A stretch of DNA of 40,804 nucleotides, from positions 1 to 40,804 of IMG/VR virus record IMGVR_UViG_2687453522_000003; one strand, given 5' to 3'. Position 1 is the first letter of the stretch; each line of letters starts with the position of its first letter. Shown one piece after another: positions 1 to 39,550 of the stretch. Origin of the DNA: a virus. Its lineage: Duplodnaviria; Heunggongvirae; Uroviricota; Caudoviricetes. The notes beneath the pieces are model-generated. The model was not told where the DNA came from. It searched no databases and saw nothing but the letters and a program-made list of their open reading frames with translations. The position numbers and the translations under genes are program-made.

Positions 1-981
1 TTAGAAAGGAATATCATCGTTCTTAACGGCATCATCAGAGATGAGAGCACCTGTTGGCAGAGGTACATTACTTACAGTATATAAATTAAGAATGTCTTCC
101 CGGTCCATAAATATTATCTGGCTTCTTTTGCTGGCATCAAGTTTCCCGCCCAGCCAGTTCCTCGCCTGTTTAGTAATTTCTCCGCCAGCAACGATAAAGG
201 CATGATCTACCAGCACCTTTCTATTTGTTTCTGGGTCAAATATTTCATGGCCAAGCATCATCAGTACCTGGTTGAAGATTTCTGCCACGTTTGAATTCGT
301 AGATTTGCTGGCACCGGACGCATCCAACTTACCTTTTTTTGCCTGAATGCCGAAATAAAGAACATGCTGAGTTGGCAGTGTGAACTTCATCCAGATGTCT
401 TTCCCGTATTCCAGCGCTTTATCTTTATGTCCCACTGCTGTTATCCGGTGAAAACCAAGTTGCCGGAATAAAGGAAGGAGAATATCTTCTATTAACTCAT
501 CTTCTGAGCAGGTATCAAGAAACGCGGTCAGTAACCTTCTGCATTCTACTTCGTGAGGCGTTAAGGGCCGATGAGGGTTATTACTGACTGAAACCGTTTT
601 GGTATCGGTATGGCGTATATACAAAAGGCGATCGTCACCATAGAATGCCTCATAGCCTTCCCGCATCAAAGGCTTGTTCAGTTCTTCAAGCGCCTTTAAT
701 CTTCCTGGATCGTCATCCATTGCATCTTCTTTTAACATTAAAGTTCTGAGCACATGAACAAACCTTTCCGGCAAAGTATGTGGCTTTGACTGTGGCTCAT
801 AAAGAAGTTCTTCAAGCCTCTGGGCCGTCCATTTCCACCGAGTGGATCCGTCATGAGTAACATCCATGCCGCAGTCCTGGAAAAATTCAGTGATGTGACT
901 GCTTGAACGATACAGAAATGCCTTATTATCTCCTATGATACATTCCGCGAGAGCCTTAAGGTTCTTGTCCTTAAATTTCAT
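1..981 (-). CDS. Hypothetical protein (326 aa), possible nuclease-like C-terminal region
   Basis: Complete ORF in track, stop codon at 1-3; no family recognised with certainty; segment GKDIWMKF...HVLYFGIQAKKGK loosely resembles a D...(E/Q)xK restriction-endonuclease-type motif (by eye only). Confidence 0.5.
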   Translation of the reverse strand: MKFKDKNLKALAECIIGDNKAFLYRSSSHITEFFQDCGMDVTHDGSTRWKWTAQRLEELLYEPQSKPHTLPERFVHVLRTLMLKEDAMDDDPGRLKALEELNKPLMREGYEAFYGDDRLLYIRHTDTKTVSVSNNPHRPLTPHEVECRRLLTAFLDTCSEDELIEDILLPLFRQLGFHRITAVGHKDKALEYGKDIWMKFTLPTQHVLYFGIQAKKGKLDASGASKSTNSNVAEIFNQVLMMLGHEIFDPETNRKVLVDHAFIVAGGEITKQARNWLGGKLDASKRSQIIFMDREDILNLYTVSNVPLPTGALISDDAVKNDDIPF

Positions 982-1454
982 GTGTAATAATCTCCCCCTC
1001 GTTTAGAATATAGAATTAATTGCAGGCACCGATTGTTCGGGTGACTGTTAGCGATTCACTACTCATTACCACTTATTCATACAAAGAAACACCCGAGGCA
1101 GTTGTTGGACAGGTATAAGTGGCGGAACCTTCATACATTAAGTGTCTCCCCATCATAATGGTGTCAAAACGTCACGGCAACAGGATTAACAAACTCCCGT
1201 TAAGCAGGCTTGAACCGACGCGCTTTTATCATTTCCTGAGAACAGAAAAAATCAAGTGCCCCTTTATCTGTTGAACAACACTGATAGTTGTTAAATACTT
1301 CCGCTTATGGCACATAGCAGTCCTAGAGACACTGGCGTAAAGCCATGGAGGATCGGTGGGAGGAGACGCTAATCCTTTCATACAAAAAATATGTAAAATC
1401 AATAACGGCTGTAAATCATTCAATACTCGCCCTATCGGAAGTTCACCAGCCAAC

Positions 1455-1492
1455 CGCAGCACGTTCTTGCATACGACGTGGCTGCGGTTTCA
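1455..1492. repeat. Hairpin repeat copy A (AACCGCAGCACG-TTCTTGCATACGACGTG-GCTGCGGTTTCA)
   Basis: Near-identical to 5620..5662 in direct orientation; about 13-bp stem with one bulge. Confidence 0.7.
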
Positions 1493-1641
1493 ACTCCCGC
1501 AAGCTCCACCAATCATGATTGAACGGTGTAAGGACAACACCAACGAAAACAGGAAGTTAGCAGTCTCAGCAGGACACCGACCAGACGGTGAGGAGACAAA
1601 AAAGGATACGCAAAGGAGCCGCGGCTCTCGAGTGACACAAA

Positions 1642-1669
1642 AGCCCGCTTATGCGGGCTTTTTGTTTTT
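1642..1669 (+). terminator. Rho-independent terminator-like hairpin (AGCCCGC-TTAT-GCGGGCT followed by TTTTTGTTTTT)
   Basis: GC stem plus T-tract read directly; preceded by a second palindrome GAGCCGCGGCTC. Confidence 0.6.
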
Positions 1670-1739
1670 CCCTTAAGTTCCTAGCCGCTTATCTATAACT
1701 ATGGAAAAATGTTAACCCTGACTGTATGTTAACAAAGGG

Positions 1740-2954
1740 ATGTATATGTCGGTTTTTCATAACTGGCTGCTTGATATCGCAAGCGGGAATTACTTTATCT
1801 ACATCAAACGCCTTTCTGCAAACGACACAGGCGCAACAGGTGGCCATCAGGTCGGACTTTATATCCCCTCAAATATCGTTGAAAAGCTTTTTCCATCTAT
1901 CAATCATACTCGCGAACTGAACCCTTCAGTCTTCCTTACTGCGCATGTATCATCCCATGATTGCCCTGATACCCAAGCACGCGCAATTTATTACAACAAC
2001 CGTTATTTTGGTAAGACCCGAAACGAAAAAAGAATTACGCGCTGGGGGAGAGGAAGTCCATTACAGAACCCTGAAAATACAGGAGCCCTCACAATTCTTG
2101 CTTTCAGGTTAAACGAACAGAACACTGACTGTTCCGAGGTAGATATATGGGTCTGCGTCAATCCCGATGAAGAGGATCTCATCGAGTCTGCTATTGGCGA
2201 AATCATACCTGGAACCCTAATTTTCGGCCCAGCCGGACAAATTTTGGGCGGATTGTCTCTTCAGCAAACTCCAGTAAATCATAAATATGTTATTCCTGAA
2301 GACTGGAAGAAGCGTTTTCCTTCTGGAAACGAAATTATTCAATATGCTGCTGGCCATTATGCTAAAAACTCCAAGGATCCAGATGAGCAACTGATTGACC
2401 GTCGGCGTGTCGAGTATGATATTTTTCTACTCGTCGAGGAATTACATGTTCTTGATATTATTAAGAAAGGATTCGATTCTGTAGATGAGTTTATTGCATT
2501 AGCCAACTCTGTCAGTAATCGACGTAAATCAAGGGCAGGTAAATCACTTGAACTTCACCTAGAGAAGCTTTTTATCGAGCACGGACTACGGCATTTCTCC
2601 ACTCAGGCAGTTACTGAAGGTAATAAAAAACCAGATTTCCTGTTTCCTTCAGCAGAGGCATATCATAACGCTGAATTTCCTGTAGAAAACTTACGTATGC
2701 TGGCAGTAAAGACCACCTGCAAAGATCGCTGGCGTCAGATACTGAATGAAGCAGATAAAATCCATCAGGTACATTTATTTACACTGCAAGAAGGTGTTTC
2801 TTCAGCACAATACCGAGAAATGAAAGATGCGGGTGTCAGACTCGTTGTACCATCAACTTTACATAAAAAATACCCAGAAGCAGTTAGAGAAGAATTAATA
2901 ACGCTCGGAGCATTCATTACTGAGCTGATAGAACTTTACACTGAACTATCATAG
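1740..2954 (+). CDS. Type II restriction endonuclease, EcoRII-like (predicted CCWGG specificity)
   Basis: 404-aa ORF convergent with a Dcm/M.EcoRII-family methyltransferase; length and arrangement match the EcoRII system as I recall it; second ATG at 1746 has better spacing to the AAGGG ribosome-binding site. Confidence 0.7.
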   Translation: MYMSVFHNWLLDIASGNYFIYIKRLSANDTGATGGHQVGLYIPSNIVEKLFPSINHTRELNPSVFLTAHVSSHDCPDTQARAIYYNNRYFGKTRNEKRITRWGRGSPLQNPENTGALTILAFRLNEQNTDCSEVDIWVCVNPDEEDLIESAIGEIIPGTLIFGPAGQILGGLSLQQTPVNHKYVIPEDWKKRFPSGNEIIQYAAGHYAKNSKDPDEQLIDRRRVEYDIFLLVEELHVLDIIKKGFDSVDEFIALANSVSNRRKSRAGKSLELHLEKLFIEHGLRHFSTQAVTEGNKKPDFLFPSAEAYHNAEFPVENLRMLAVKTTCKDRWRQILNEADKIHQVHLFTLQEGVSSAQYREMKDAGVRLVVPSTLHKKYPEAVREELITLGAFITELIELYTELS

Positions 2955-2988
2955 GCTGACTCCCGGCTTAAAAGGCCGGGAGGTGTTC

Positions 2989-4422
2989 TCAAGGCTGCCC
3001 AGTCTTACCAGCATCAGCAGAAACAGCTTTGAGGATATAGGGTTCCAGAAGTCTGGCAACGGCTTCAAATACTGGCACCACAACGGAGTTACCGAACTGC
3101 CGATATGACTGAGTATCTGAAACCGGAATACGGAATGGTTTCCCTCCAGGTTTTTCAAACCCCATAAGGCGTGCGCACTCTCGGGGAGTCAGCCTGCGTG
3201 GTCGACGAGCCTGGTTACTCTCATTCATAAAGTCAGCCTCTCCCGTTGCCATATCCCAACCACGATCAATAAGAATTTCTGATCCGTCTTTGTGATATCT
3301 GGCAGAAAGTGTGCGTGCAATGCTTTCCTTATTCTCAGGATTGACCAACCCAAAGCCAAAACCATTCCCCTTGGCTGCATGCTTTTTGGCGTAGTTATAA
3401 AGGTACTCCCATAGTTTTGGCGTAAGTATATATTTACTGTCGACTACAGGCTCCAGCAATTCACCAAATGATGGGCGGTGTTCCGGATAAAAACGACTGA
3501 TATCACGCAAGGTAAACCCCTTGTGAATATTCAGATCTCGTCTAAATCCGACCAGAACAATGCGTTCACGATGCTGAGGCAAAAAATGCTTCCCATCGAT
3601 AATCTTTGGATCGTTTTTTCCCATTTCTGCAGCATCGGCAACTTCGTAGCCCAGCTCGTCAAGGGTCTCCATAATGACTTTGAAAGTTTTACCCTTATCA
3701 TGGCTCTTCAGATTTTTGACATTTTCCAGCACAAAAATTGCCGGTTTTTTTGCTCGTATAATACGTGCCACGTCAAAAAAAAGTGTTCCTTGTGCTTCAC
3801 ATTCAAAACCATGCGCACGACCAAGTGAGTTTTTCTTACTAACACCAGCAAGGCTAAATGGCTGGCACGGGAACCCCGCAAGAAGCACATCATGATCCGG
3901 CACATGCTCATCAATATATGCATAAGCATCCGTTTCCAATATATCGGTTTTATCACTCAGCGTGACTTCCCGAATATCGAGATTGAATTTATGCACCTGT
4001 TCATCGTTAAACCAGTTGGCCTTGTATGTACGCACAGCATCTTTATTCCATTCACTGGTAAAAACACACTGGCCTCCAATGGCCTCAAAACCTTTCCGTA
4101 TCCCTCCAATTCCAGCAAATAAGTCAATGAAGCGGAAAGCATATTCCGGATGGTTTGCAGGTGGTTCTGGTAGCATCTTACGCAGAAGAGACTCTTCTAC
4201 TGAAGTCAACGATTTTGGTAAACACTTGCCATTAATCCAGCGGTTAATGGTTTCACGGCTCCACTCATTTCTTCCGACTTTTCTCAGTAATTCAGCCACA
4301 TACTTCTGATCATAGATTTCCAGCACTTTCTCGATAAGCTTTTTATCATTTTCCTGTCGCAGCTTTTCTTCCGCCTCGGCTTCCTTCAGCAGATGCTGTG
4401 CCAACACTTCAAATTCAGACAT
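2989..4422 (-). CDS. DNA-cytosine C5 methyltransferase, Dcm/M.EcoRII family
   Basis: Motifs FAGIGG (motif I), FPCQPFS (catalytic Cys), ENVKNL, QFGNSV; near-colinear with E. coli Dcm from memory; start set at internal ATG (MSEFEV...) preceded by GGAGGA, giving 477 aa; the track ORF extends to 4464. Confidence 0.9.
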
Positions 4423-4729
4423 AATTCCTCCAAGGGGTCTAATGGGTGAAACTTTATCACTCATTTAACCCAGAAGGAAATGTTTTATCTGGATATTTAA
4501 ACAGTGACTGCAACGTAATCTAGCACTGGTGATGCTTTGTTAGGCATAGAGAATCATTCTATATACGACTAATGACAGAAAAACAGCAGACAAGTAGTTT
4601 GTTCATAAATTAACGCATACTACGTGCCTACGGTTTTCGAGACCGGTCCAATCATCAAACGAAACATAAAATTAGCTCACATTATGAGGAAAAGTATCTT
4701 TTTTGTACTATGTAAATTCAAAGGCTTAG

Positions 4730-5551
<822 letters not shown>

Positions 5552-13177: not shown

Positions 13178-15085
13178 TTATCGTGGAAAACGAAAAGGGG
13201 AATACCCCACATCGTGCGTGATTTTCATCAGGGGATCGGCTTTGTCCGGTACATCAATTATCTTCATACCTGGCGGAGCATTCTCGAACGTGACTTTCAG
13301 CTCGCTGTGCTGTGTCATGGAAGAAGATGGATTCAACAGCGGAACATTGGGTTTGTACTGACTCAGGCTGGCCTGATATTGCTCGTACTCTTTACGATCA
13401 AAAAAAGGCGTCCAGTCTGAAGCCAGAAACAGCCCTTTATTATCCAGCCAGTTAACCGTATCTTCAGGAACAACACTTTCCAGAGTATCTTTAACCGGCT
13501 CATACATCAGGGTTCCCAGAAAACCATATACCCCGGCCTTCCCGATAAAGCCGCGGCCTTTCCCCATCAATCCCGTTTCTGCCGATACCTTCCCCAGCGT
13601 ACGCATCTCTCTGGTCACTGCGGTAATGGATTTGGTAACGTCAGCAACCCATTTGGTTGTCATAAACAGGGCGATCGCTTTCAGAACAGTTTCCCATCCC
13701 CCCATCGCCTGCGCCGTTTCATCCACCACGCGCCAGACTTTTTTTATGACAGGACCTACGGTTTCCCAGTTATCAATAATGAGGTAAGCGCCACCGACCA
13801 GAAGAGCAATCAGCCCCTTAGCAGGCGTCATATTCATCACACCGCCGAGAACTTTCATGATTCTGGACAAAGAGCCTGCAGCGGCCCCCACTGTCAGTAA
13901 AGCCAGACCGATTTTAGCAATGGTCTTAACGAGCTCCGGGTTTTCACGGACAAACGTTCTCACTTCCTCAAGGAGCGGTTTTACCGCTTCAAGACCATCA
14001 TTAACCTCAGGAAGAAACGTTTCCCCCAGAGTGGAAGAAATGGCATCAAGTTGATTTTGCAGAAGTAAAAGCTGGTTTTCCGTCGTCGCTGCCCTCGAAG
14101 CATATTCCTTCTGCATCGAACTGCCATACTGCTGGGAATCCGCAACCCGCCTGAAGTTGGTACGCAACAAATCAAGGTTAGTCAGCAGAGGTGCTATCGC
14201 GCCCAGAGACTCTTTCCCGAACAGGGCATTCAGCACAGCTGCCTGTTTTTCTTTAGGCACTTTAGCCATCGCATCCAGTACAGACAGCATGGTGCCCCGG
14301 GCATCTTTCTGCATATCAGCAGCTAATTTCTTCGGATTGATCCGCAGAAAACGCAATGCCTGTTTCTGCGATTTTGTCGCGGAATTTCCCGCAGTCAGGG
14401 AAAGCATGAAGTTCTTGATCCCTGTGGCGGCAATTTCTGACTCCACACCCATCCCGGCAATGGTTGCCCCCATCGCCGCGATTTCGCCGGAAGCCACACC
14501 AGCAACACCACCTAAAGGACCAATACGCGTAACAATATCGGAGATTTTCTTCGCATTCGCCGGGCCGGTATTACCAAGGTAGTTGATTTTGTCAGCCAGC
14601 CCGGCCACTTCATCCTGCGTCATATTAAACGCAGTACGCCACTGGGCCATCATCTGCCCGGACTCTTCAGCCGTGGTATCAAAGGCCACGCCCATCTTCA
14701 CCGCATCAGTGGCAAACTGCATCAGTTCATCACGTGCAATCCCGGCCTGACCGCCAGCCGCCACAATTTCCGCGATCCCGTCTGCAGACATGGGAAGCTC
14801 AGTAGACAAAGCGCGTACCTGCTCCGTCATGGCCTTAAACGCATCCGGCGTATCCAGACCGTCCACCACTTTGCGGACATCAGCCATCTTCGATTCAAGG
14901 GTGATGGCTGATTTTACAGGGAGTGCCAGTGCCCCCATTATTGCAGTACCCGCCCCGGCAGCGCCCAGAGCAAGGCTGGAGACTTCTTTTTGAAACCCCT
15001 TAAGCTGACGCTGCATACCTTTAAGCGGGCCGGATAGCCTGTCAACGGCGGTGATGATGGCTTTCAGCTGAAAATTATCAGCCAT
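13178..15085 (-). CDS. Tail tape measure protein
   Basis: 635 aa, Ala/Gly-rich helical repeats, position between chaperone and baseplate genes. Confidence 0.85.
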   Translation of the reverse strand: MADNFQLKAIITAVDRLSGPLKGMQRQLKGFQKEVSSLALGAAGAGTAIMGALALPVKSAITLESKMADVRKVVDGLDTPDAFKAMTEQVRALSTELPMSADGIAEIVAAGGQAGIARDELMQFATDAVKMGVAFDTTAEESGQMMAQWRTAFNMTQDEVAGLADKINYLGNTGPANAKKISDIVTRIGPLGGVAGVASGEIAAMGATIAGMGVESEIAATGIKNFMLSLTAGNSATKSQKQALRFLRINPKKLAADMQKDARGTMLSVLDAMAKVPKEKQAAVLNALFGKESLGAIAPLLTNLDLLRTNFRRVADSQQYGSSMQKEYASRAATTENQLLLLQNQLDAISSTLGETFLPEVNDGLEAVKPLLEEVRTFVRENPELVKTIAKIGLALLTVGAAAGSLSRIMKVLGGVMNMTPAKGLIALLVGGAYLIIDNWETVGPVIKKVWRVVDETAQAMGGWETVLKAIALFMTTKWVADVTKSITAVTREMRTLGKVSAETGLMGKGRGFIGKAGVYGFLGTLMYEPVKDTLESVVPEDTVNWLDNKGLFLASDWTPFFDRKEYEQYQASLSQYKPNVPLLNPSSSMTQHSELKVTFENAPPGMKIIDVPDKADPLMKITHDVGYSPFRFPR

Positions 15086-39360: not shown

Positions 39361-39436
39361 TGGTGCCGATAATAGGAGTCGAACCTACGACCTTCGCATT
39401 ACGAATGCGCTGCTCTACCAACTGAGCTATATCGGC
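39361..39436 (-). tRNA. thrW: tRNA-Thr (anticodon CGU), thrW-type; prophage attachment site at its 3' end
   Basis: Reverse complement reads GCCGATATAGCTCAGTTGGTAGAGCAGCGCATTCGTAATGCGAAGGTCGTAGGTTCGACTCCTATTATCGGCACCA. Confidence 0.9.
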
Positions 39437-39550
39437 CCTGAAAGGACATGTTCACGAACGTGAATCACGGTGGGCAAGGTTAAAACTAACCGGGCGATGC
39501 GTCAATGGCCTTGTGAATCAAATGGCTACTTTTGCATCACCCGGTTTTAT

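Follow-up and report, generated by a model that had tools for sequence, protein, structure and literature searches.

Mrr and the Mrr-like Type IV restriction enzymes combine an N-terminal recognition domain with a C-terminal nuclease domain in about 300 amino acids (aa) and have no cognate methyltransferase. Their catalytic domains, represented by the Pfam family Mrr_cat (PF04471) and by E. coli Mrr, AF1548, AspBHI, MspJI and LlaBIII, share a common fold and a D...QxK variant of the active-site motif. A short peptide of another protein, the C-terminal tip of SSB, the bacterial protein that binds single-stranded DNA, has the sequence DDDIPF in E. coli and serves, under the name SSB-Ct, as docking site for many genome-maintenance proteins (PMC5872125). 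SSBs and SSB-like proteins encoded by phages and plasmids, such as the SSB of HK620 or Bas52_0087, which ends in FDDDIPF, copy the tip of their host and thereby link up with the SSB clients of the host (PMC5928155; bioRxiv 10.64898/2026.04.29.721553). The subject of the present analysis is a gene at the left edge of a 40,804-nucleotide stretch of DNA, hereafter the window (IMG/VR virus record IMGVR_UViG_2687453522_000003, positions 1 to 40,804). It occupies positions 1..981 on the minus strand and encodes a 326-aa protein, which is predicted to unite a PD-(D/E)xK nuclease domain of the Mrr/FokI type with a C-terminus resembling the SSB tip.

The predicted nuclease agrees with the Mrr-like enzymes in its fold, in the D...QxK variant, in the order and overall size of its domains and in the lack of a cognate methyltransferase. 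However, the window protein reaches no model of Pfam, NCBIfam or PADLOC, and its N-terminal domain is not Mrr_N by sequence and gave no fold match. In comparison with bacterial SSBs, the terminal penta- to heptapeptide is identical or nearly so, including the variants that are specific to individual phyla (DDDIPF for E. coli, DDEPPF for mycobacteria and DDEIPF for Rhodobacter and Halomonas), and in both proteins it forms the very C-terminus behind a disordered, poorly conserved linker. This linker comprises 10–20 residues in the nuclease but about 50–60 in SSB, and the nuclease possesses neither an OB fold nor a domain for binding of single-stranded DNA (ssDNA). The phage and plasmid SSBs are likewise proteins of mobile elements with a copied host tip; they are, however, true OB-fold ssDNA binders serving the phage, whereas in the present family the tip is attached to a nuclease. 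To our knowledge no Mrr-type enzyme with an SSB tip has been described, and none was found. A literature search on the accession, on mimics of the SSB tip and on endonucleases with DDIPF, with subscription journals mostly outside its coverage, yielded no account of the nuclease family, nor was any nuclease or defence protein described there as bearing an SSB tip of its own.

Predicted nuclease domain and SSB-like tail

The open reading frame (ORF) is complete, running from an ATG at positions 981–979 to a TAA stop codon at 3–1, as had been stated in a preliminary description made from the sequence, and its product is identical to WP_023147794.1. Residues 142–305 (67..558, minus strand, as for all features of this gene) were assigned to a PD-(D/E)xK nuclease domain on the basis of the predicted fold and conserved residues. 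In a first AlphaFold model, calculated from the alignment of the core family (at least 70% identical), only the N-terminal domain was modelled, and the predicted local distance difference test score (pLDDT) of the nuclease domain stayed below 50. Addition of a divergent branch of the family gave a second model with a pLDDT of 84.8, in which both domains are confident. This model displays the alpha-beta-beta-beta-alpha-beta core of the PD-(D/E)xK superfamily in a restriction-endonuclease fold, with FokI, AspBHI and the Mrr-like AF1548 as closest structures and BspD6I, LlaBIII and MspJI among the further fold matches of the nuclease domain. The top match of Foldseek in the PDB was FokI. In the BFVD database the top matches were viral proteins with E values of about 1e-4, the named ones of which are labelled 'Restriction endonuclease' or 'type IV Mrr domain'.

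The residues of the putative active site are located where they are expected in a PD-(D/E)xK fold. Conservation was evaluated in an alignment of 150 sequences (A3), which includes the divergent branch with 38–64% identity to the window protein. E160 (502..504), situated in the sequence CSEDELIE where the first core helix begins, is invariant. D195 (397..399), the putative metal-binding aspartate of the GKDIW motif, is at least 90% conserved and marks the start of strand beta-2 (residues 196–201 in the model). At the end of strand beta-3 (residues 207–215 in the model), the sequence Q213-A-K215 (337..345) forms the (E/Q)xK motif, and Q213 and K215 are again invariant. The two segments that had initially drawn attention to this region are GKDIWMKF (residues 193–200, nucleotides 382–405) and HVLYFGIQAKKGK (residues 206–218, nucleotides 328–366). 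The preliminary description had noted in them a loose resemblance to the D...(E/Q)xK arrangement of Mrr-type nucleases and had named structure prediction and conservation of the motif among homologues as the means of examining it; both bear the resemblance out, through a predicted restriction-endonuclease fold nearest to FokI, AspBHI and AF1548 and through the conserved positions listed above. The motif was also placed in the C-terminal third of the protein, but while it is present, it lies at 59–67% of the length, in the middle of the C-terminal half.

Searched against Mrr_cat, the divergent relative P0141 scores 18.4 bits (E value 2.5e-3) over positions 4–112 of the 115-position profile, at a gathering threshold of 21 bits. 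The family is a distant relative of the Mrr-type enzymes outside Mrr_cat as currently defined. The FokI cleavage domain and the BspD6I nickase subunits, although close in predicted structure, belong to Type IIS enzymes, which possess recognition domains specific for a sequence and have methyltransferases as partners, and their identity to the window protein is only 9–13%. The window protein very probably has a nuclease fold.

Following the nuclease domain, residues 306–320 (22..66) constitute a flexible linker, which in alignment A1 and in the model consists of a conserved LPLP hinge and about 10 variable residues. It leads to the C-terminal tip NDDIPF-COOH (residues 321–326, 4..21); the last 10–13 residues of the protein read ISDDAVKNDDIPF. 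From residue 315 to 326 the pLDDT falls below 50, indicating a disordered tail. The consensus tip of the family is DDDIPF-COOH and thus the hexapeptide of E. coli SSB, which ends in WMDFDDDIPF (PMC3575820). In 120 sequences of the core family PF is terminal in 116 and F in 119, the commonest tips being DDDIPF (44) and NDDIPF (17), and of 120 tips from the divergent branch (about 45% identical) 112 end in PF, with DDDIPF (33) and DEDIPF (13) as the commonest. Almost all tips from 80 genomes of many phyla conform to (D/E)(D/E)(I/V/L)PF. Since DDIPF is written in 26 different codon strings among the fetched loci, recently shared DNA offers no explanation, and selection acts on the peptide. The window protein thus displays the disordered linker and an acidic tip of the type D-D-(D/E)-(I/L/P)-P-F-COOH, whereas an OB fold was absent from its fold matches and no SSB family of Pfam matched it. 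It mimics the SSB tip in sequence and is not an SSB. That the tail also functions as such a mimic is probable. This tip, which had escaped the preliminary description, is the most distinctive feature of the protein.

The tail moreover changes in parallel with the SSB of the host. None of the Actinomycetota plasmid copies ends in IPF: the tail reads ...SPWALSNDEPPF in Rhodococcus rhodochrous, ...NPWTTTDEPPF in Mycobacterium lentiflavum, ...TWPDGPPF in Rhodococcus opacus and ...KPWSGNNELPF in Corynebacterium glyciniphilum. A search with the Mycobacterium copy delineated a clade whose organism-named members are all actinobacterial (Mycobacterium, Streptomyces, Nocardia, Actinomadura, Saccharopolyspora, Cellulomonas, Kocuria, Rhodococcus and others). 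In 120 sequences of this clade, 111 end in PPF, none in (I/L/V/M)PF, and 96 contain 'PW' within the last 20 residues. The corresponding numbers are 0, 114 and 0 for 120 sequences of the core clade, and 1, 100 and 0 for 118 sequences of the divergent clade. The actinobacterial tails follow the pattern ...DPWxxxDEPPF, with S/GDEPPF as the most frequent tip. In full-length PDB sequences, the SSB tails of M. tuberculosis (...SGDDPWGSAPASGSFGGGDDEPPF), M. leprae (...GDDPWGSAPTSGSFGVGDEEPPF) and M. smegmatis (...KDDPWGSAPASGSFSGADDEPPF) have the common ending DDPWGSAP...D(D/E)EPPF, in agreement with mycobacterial SSB peptides used experimentally (PMC7847540, PMC3575820). The actinobacterial nuclease tail thus copies both elements of the local SSB, DPW and DEPPF.

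A finer distinction is found within the proteobacteria. The SSBs of Rhodobacter and Halomonas end in LDDEIPF and FDDEIPF, respectively (PMC13490951). All seven Rhodobacterales copies of the nuclease end in DE(I/V/L)PF. Of the 21 beta- and gammaproteobacterial copies, 16 end in DD(I/V/L)PF and 10 in the full E. coli heptapeptide FDDDIPF. Fisher tests give p values of about 1e-80 and about 8e-4, which overstate independence because the members of a clade share ancestry; the weight of the co-variation therefore lies in the direction of the changes and in the match of two elements, not in the p values. The cyanobacterial copies L034, L038, L040 and L055 end in EDEFPF, DNELPF, EDGLSF and DNELAF, respectively, and these deviant tails may reflect either further matching to the host or decay of the motif.

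The N-terminal domain and conservation of the gene

Residues 1–130 (592..981) form an N-terminal domain of five helices and a beta-hairpin, modelled with a pLDDT of 85–96 and characterized by the conserved motif F-x-YRSS...FF..C.....HDGSTR..W. It has no Pfam match, and no fold match was obtained in the structure searches that were run; matches to FtsZ among PDB sequences (E value about 0.06) were discarded as noise. In the model, helix 95–107 and hairpin 110–124 could constitute a wing. Some relatives (P0127, P0128, P0132, P0140, P0150, P0172 and P0179) keep the nuclease domain but carry an unrelated N-terminus. In the P0127 cluster, P0128, P0132 and P0140, the domain is replaced or cut to about 55 residues, and the P0127 form, with 40 members in its 90% cluster, is reduced to 250 aa. 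Because relatives swap the N-terminus while they keep the nuclease domain, the N-terminal domain is probably a specificity or sensor module. The SSB-type tip is kept despite the swap in P0127 (DDKLPF) and P0128 (IDDLPF), which argues against the N-terminal domain as receptor of the tail. In P0132 a foreign N-terminus is accompanied by a tail of the actinobacterial type (...DPWGPPPF).

Homologues of the window protein are numerous, with 3,877 in a protein database clustered at 90% identity (E value of at most 1e-3) and 1,162 representatives after clustering at 50%. Relatives are encoded in at least 547 species-representative genomes of GTDB across many phyla. Their length is almost constant (324–329 aa), and identity to the E. 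coli protein still amounts to about 70–75% in Verrucomicrobiota, Cyanobacteria, Bacteroidales, Synergistota, Planctomycetota and Acidobacteriota. For closer pairs of homologues the ratio of nonsynonymous to synonymous substitution rates (dN/dS) is 0.08–0.14. Between phyla, synonymous sites are saturated, with a proportion of synonymous differences (pS) of 0.85–0.94 and of nonsynonymous differences (pN) of 0.17–0.28 at a protein identity of still about 70%. The number of homologues, the low dN/dS and the high identity across phyla show that the ORF did not arise by chance but is a genuine gene, maintained by strong purifying selection. The window protein matched nothing in Pfam (E value up to 10), NCBIfam, PADLOC (E value up to 1) or PHROGs, and searches of PDB sequences with profiles from alignments A1 and A3 returned nothing significant.

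Upstream of the start codon, non-coding DNA (982..1314, minus strand) travels with the gene as far as position 1314, the end of a 1,554-bp block that is 100% identical between E. coli contexts. It contains a strong ribosome-binding site, GAGGGGGAG, at 992–1000, 10 nucleotides in front of the start, and a weak sigma-70-like site at 1180..1152, the latter a consensus match from a promoter scan. In the DNA flanking the gene, Rfam and ARAGORN called no non-coding RNA and no tRNA, respectively.

Genomic surroundings

The window is found, identical in sequence, in the chromosome of E. coli CRE1493, where it represents a whole lambdoid/HK97-type prophage. At its right end the integrase abuts tRNA-Thr (thrW), beside proA. 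The attachment (att) sites are formed by a 49-bp exact direct repeat of the thrW 3' end, one copy being located in tRNA-Thr (about 39362–39437) and the other left of the window at −543..−495 (14457–14505 of locus L001), which supplies the att copy that the preliminary description had listed as missing. The thrW prophage thereby measures about 39.9 kb, and the nuclease gene is its outermost cargo gene.

Inward from the nuclease gene follow an ssrA fragment, an EcoRII-like restriction endonuclease, a Dcm-type methyltransferase, a GIY-YIG gene and the Pin invertase with a tail-fibre switch. The ssrA fragment (about 1484–1666, plus strand), positioned between the end of the identical block at 1314 and the EcoRII-like gene, matches the 3' part of the tmRNA gene ssrA of E. 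coli at about 90% identity and was called by neither Rfam nor ARAGORN; in appearance it is an att-type remnant, left by an element that integrates into ssrA and now cargo of the thrW prophage. The EcoRII-like Type II enzyme is encoded at 1740–2954 (plus strand; PADLOC REase_II, E value 2.7e-233), convergent with the Dcm-type cytosine methyltransferase at 2989–4464 (minus strand; NCBIfam PRK10458, 926 bits), for which the ORF from the first ATG has 491 aa while the RefSeq coding sequence is shorter (1,434 nt). The GIY-YIG ORF at 4775–5551 (plus strand) matches PADLOC PD-T4-3 (E value 2.5e-128) and is annotated in RefSeq as 'LEM-3-like GIY-YIG domain-containing protein'. One end of the prophage therefore holds at least the EcoRII-like restriction-modification (R-M) pair, PD-T4-3 and the nuclease gene in a row.

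The preliminary description had considered the protein a possible third defence nuclease, grouped with the R-M pair and with the GIY-YIG gene. The adjacency in the window is real and a defence role is plausible from context; a functional cluster, however, is not upheld in other genomes. Of 5,426 E. coli genomes 190 (3.5%) carry the nuclease gene, and only 6 of these 190 contain the 1–1740 junction with the R-M pair. Two unrelated E. coli contexts have in common the single-gene block of 1,554 bp (−239..1314), which most E. coli carriers harbour in a different prophage, of the Qin type; in the other carriers examined, for example IPCEC31, hokD lies on one side of it there and the remnant of an integrase on the other. 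As R-M and PD-T4-3 genes are lacking in such contexts, membership of the R-M island was rejected. In IPCEC31 (L002, 13341–17102) the module stands beside the truncated integrase and two unannotated ORFs of 450 and 315 aa, and this cargo is situated between hokD/rem, with a Q-antiterminator and RusA beyond, and replication and immunity genes (DUF977, YdaT-family, dicC/dicA).

The suggestion that an upstream partner might be located outside the window also failed. The genes to the left are past the att repeat and form part of another element. When the neighbours were clustered, 5 of 93 loci was the upper limit for the recurrence of any ORF family, and scans of the 148 nearest ORFs with Pfam and PADLOC likewise revealed no recurrent partner. 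The numerous ORFs of 300–430 aa that lie upstream on the same strand are mutually unrelated. In four Paracoccaceae loci (L064, L073, L076 and L078; about 796–3927, plus strand), an ORF of about 1,043 aa lies directly upstream on the same strand; it is lineage-specific, and the gene remains solitary. A methyltransferase is absent from the 25 Pfam families that occur most often in the 148 nearest neighbour ORFs. The nuclease gene thus conforms to the Type IV pattern of a stand-alone gene without cognate methyltransferase, and it is the one gene on the 1,554-bp module. The separate integrative element left of the att repeat (L001, 8891–14296) is an operon-like block that encodes a tyrosine recombinase, an HsdM-family methyltransferase and two further proteins, one with a zinc ribbon (568 aa) and one hypothetical (356 aa). 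It could be another methylation-based defence system, and behind it come an IS21 remnant and the gene of a YjhX toxin.

The 148 nearest neighbour ORFs are of mixed kinds, and the classes met most often are integrases and resolvases, ATPases of the OLD/Gabija/PARIS/Septu type, MADS components, Type I R subunits, SNF2, reverse transcriptases and caspase-like proteases. A Klebsiella copy is flanked by VapBC and an OLD/Gabija-like ATPase, with a KAP NTPase nearby, and a cyanobacterial copy adjoins a DUF1156/SNF2-PLD/DUF3780 cluster. The Mycobacterium plasmid copy adjoins an AAA-ATPase/helicase pair, a large ATP-binding protein and an HNH protein, and the Rhodococcus opacus copy adjoins DUF4062. 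Directly upstream of the Verrucomicrobial copy from Ruficoccus, a 430-aa gene (L003, 6488–7777, plus strand) matches PDC-M30A, a candidate defence family of PADLOC (E value 7.5e-26). The nuclease gene was found on 47 plasmids, 25 of them conjugative. No match was obtained in 50,697 phage genomes, and only 20 loci were found in 2.9 million viral contigs, of which several checked are prophage regions of isolate genomes; a phage origin of the gene was therefore rejected. The gene is accessory, belongs to mobile DNA and stands alone, in the company of defence islands.

Possible roles of the nuclease and its tail

Taken as a whole, the proposal that the protein is a stand-alone Mrr-type nuclease, the SSB-tail mimic of which docks on SSB-client proteins and which acts against invading phage or plasmid DNA, has an even chance of being correct. 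Such an enzyme would be modular, with residues 1–130 as specificity or sensor domain, residues 142–305 as catalytic domain and a disordered tail bearing the host SSB tip. The terminal (D/E)(D/E)(I/V/L/P)PF-COOH would insert into the SSB-Ct pockets of genome-maintenance proteins of the host, candidates in E. coli being ExoI, RecJ, RecQ, PriA and the chi subunit of Pol III. In this way the tail may either bring the nuclease to replication and recombination intermediates or draw exonucleases and helicases to DNA that the nuclease has bound or cut. The lack of a methyltransferase or immunity gene implies that the enzyme is modification-dependent, and thus Type IV-like, or inactive until triggered. 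Together with the occurrence as cargo of prophages, plasmids and defence islands, this lack also speaks for a role as Type IV-like or otherwise conditionally active nuclease directed against invading DNA. Taken by itself, a role in conflict or defence is slightly favoured. The binding of the tail to SSB clients, the identity of the client, the DNA substrate and the defence role are those parts of the proposal that are inferred, whereas the ORF, its class of fold, the conservation of catalytic residues, the motif of the tail and its co-variation with the SSB tails of host phyla, the absence of a partner gene and the purifying selection are established. In function, a C-terminally tethered nuclease such as NucS is the nearest analogy. 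NucS/EndoMS is tethered to the sliding clamp by a short C-terminal motif; its peptide, however, binds the hub itself (the sliding clamp), whereas the tail of the present family imitates the bait of the hub and would thus recruit, or be recruited by, the clients of the hub.

Several points weigh against this proposal. Binding of the tail to SSB clients is argued from mimicry of sequence, and as a cell contains thousands of SSB tails, a mimic of low copy number would need to compete with them. How self DNA would be spared is left without explanation. The defence role is deduced from context, the family is absent from PADLOC, and the counts of defence genes among its neighbours are raw numbers without a background rate. 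In addition, such conservation across phyla is unusual in defence genes. The counts underlying the co-variation are phylogenetically non-independent, and the host SSB tails were those of representative taxa from the literature and the PDB rather than of each carrier genome. The switch to PPF may even be a single ancestral event, though its direction and the match of two elements are unlikely to have arisen by chance.

The same tail might serve as a bait instead of a tether. In this alternative, which is possible but clearly unlikely, the acidic tail folds onto the basic DNA-binding surface and holds the nuclease off, until phage proteins that hijack the SSB tip capture the bait and thereby release or position the nuclease, which then cuts DNA as direct immunity or in abortive infection. 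Candidate triggers are annealases of the Red-beta/RecT type, Orf-type mediators, and phage proteins of replication or replication restart, besides plasmid proteins. Phage proteins which bind SSB or its tip are indeed known, as has been reported for the C-terminal domain of Red-beta (PMC6393309) and for lambda Orf (PMC4118853), and the portability of RecT depends on the SSB tail (10.1101/2020.04.14.041095, PMC13490951). A precedent for autoinhibition is the intramolecular binding of the SSB tip to its own OB domain (PMC3936761). Moreover, several defence systems monitor the ssDNA metabolism of phages (PMC12904381), and Nhi, Hachiman, Retron-Eco8, Septu, AbpAB and DRT10 are immune effectors likewise tied to SSB biology (PMC12904381, PMC10732053). 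These sense phage SSBs, however; none is reported to carry an SSB tip, and none is homologous to the window protein. A solitary nuclease without an immunity gene would need an off-switch, and a bait matched to the host accounts equally well for the co-variation of the tail. On the other hand, the model leaves the tail undocked on the body, with a pLDDT below 50 for residues 315–326, host SSB clients would occupy the bait constantly, and the trigger is still hypothetical. The data at hand do not separate tether from bait. If the bait were real, the effector would contain a built-in decoy of a host interaction hub, a principle of sensing so far undescribed in bacterial immunity.

A role outside immunity is rather improbable. 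The protein would then be an accessory for repair, recombination or replication restart of mobile elements, that is, a structure-specific nuclease that marks a DNA structure and, through its SSB tip, recruits PriA, RecQ, RecG or exonucleases there, to the advantage of the host or the element. Resolvases and NucS, a repair nuclease, are PD-(D/E)xK enzymes too and occur among the fold matches, and the high conservation and constant length resemble a housekeeping constraint more than an arms race; the 25 conjugative plasmids among the 47 carriers would likewise suit such an accessory. The nearest folds, however, are restriction enzymes and not resolvases, and a swappable N-terminal domain is typical of sensor-effector proteins of immunity. 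The patchy accessory distribution (3.5% of E. coli) and the occurrence as single-copy cargo at prophage ends and in toxin-antitoxin/defence islands also disagree with this role.

It is highly unlikely that the tail controls the amount of the protein instead of its docking, as a degron or an adaptor signal read by a protease with specificity for SSB-Ct, by which the nuclease would be kept scarce until proteolysis is disturbed, even though a solitary nuclease needs tight control. Such a signal would still be SSB-tail mimicry and therefore a sub-case rather than a true alternative, and we know of no role of SSB-Ct as a general degron in proteobacteria. Mycobacterial ClpX binds the C-terminal peptide of SSB and is activated by it, but targeting for degradation was not seen in that work (PMC7847540). 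Mere coincidence, with the tail as a generic acidic C-terminus or the protein as a catalytically dead DNA-binding regulator in a restriction-enzyme fold, would allow for the frequency of acidic C-termini, the N in place of D at position −6 of the window protein, the roughly 5% of members without a PF end and the tipless most remote relatives (P0235, P0254, P0150 and P0172), yet it is very hard to reconcile with the exact hexa- or heptapeptide (F)DDDIPF as the mode of the family, a terminal PF-COOH in about 95% of members beside a freely varying linker, the actinobacterial switch to DPW...DEPPF with both elements of the SSB found there, and invariant catalytic residues.

The window gene thus belongs to a widespread, strongly conserved and unannotated family of solitary, predicted Mrr-type nucleases with a host-matched mimic of the SSB tail. 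The SSB tip is among the most conserved docking signals of bacteria, on which more than 12 enzymes of replication, repair and recombination rely. It has so far been attributed to SSBs, among them the phage- and plasmid-encoded ones, and is found here on a protein of the restriction-nuclease type, tuned to each host phylum. If the tail does bind SSB clients, it would represent a new way of targeting or regulating a nuclease in cells, and the family would offer a probe for the SSB interactome that is natural and tuned to the host. The gene itself would then be an unannotated one-gene candidate for defence against phages and plasmids, present in clinical E. coli, in Klebsiella and on plasmids of the resistance type.

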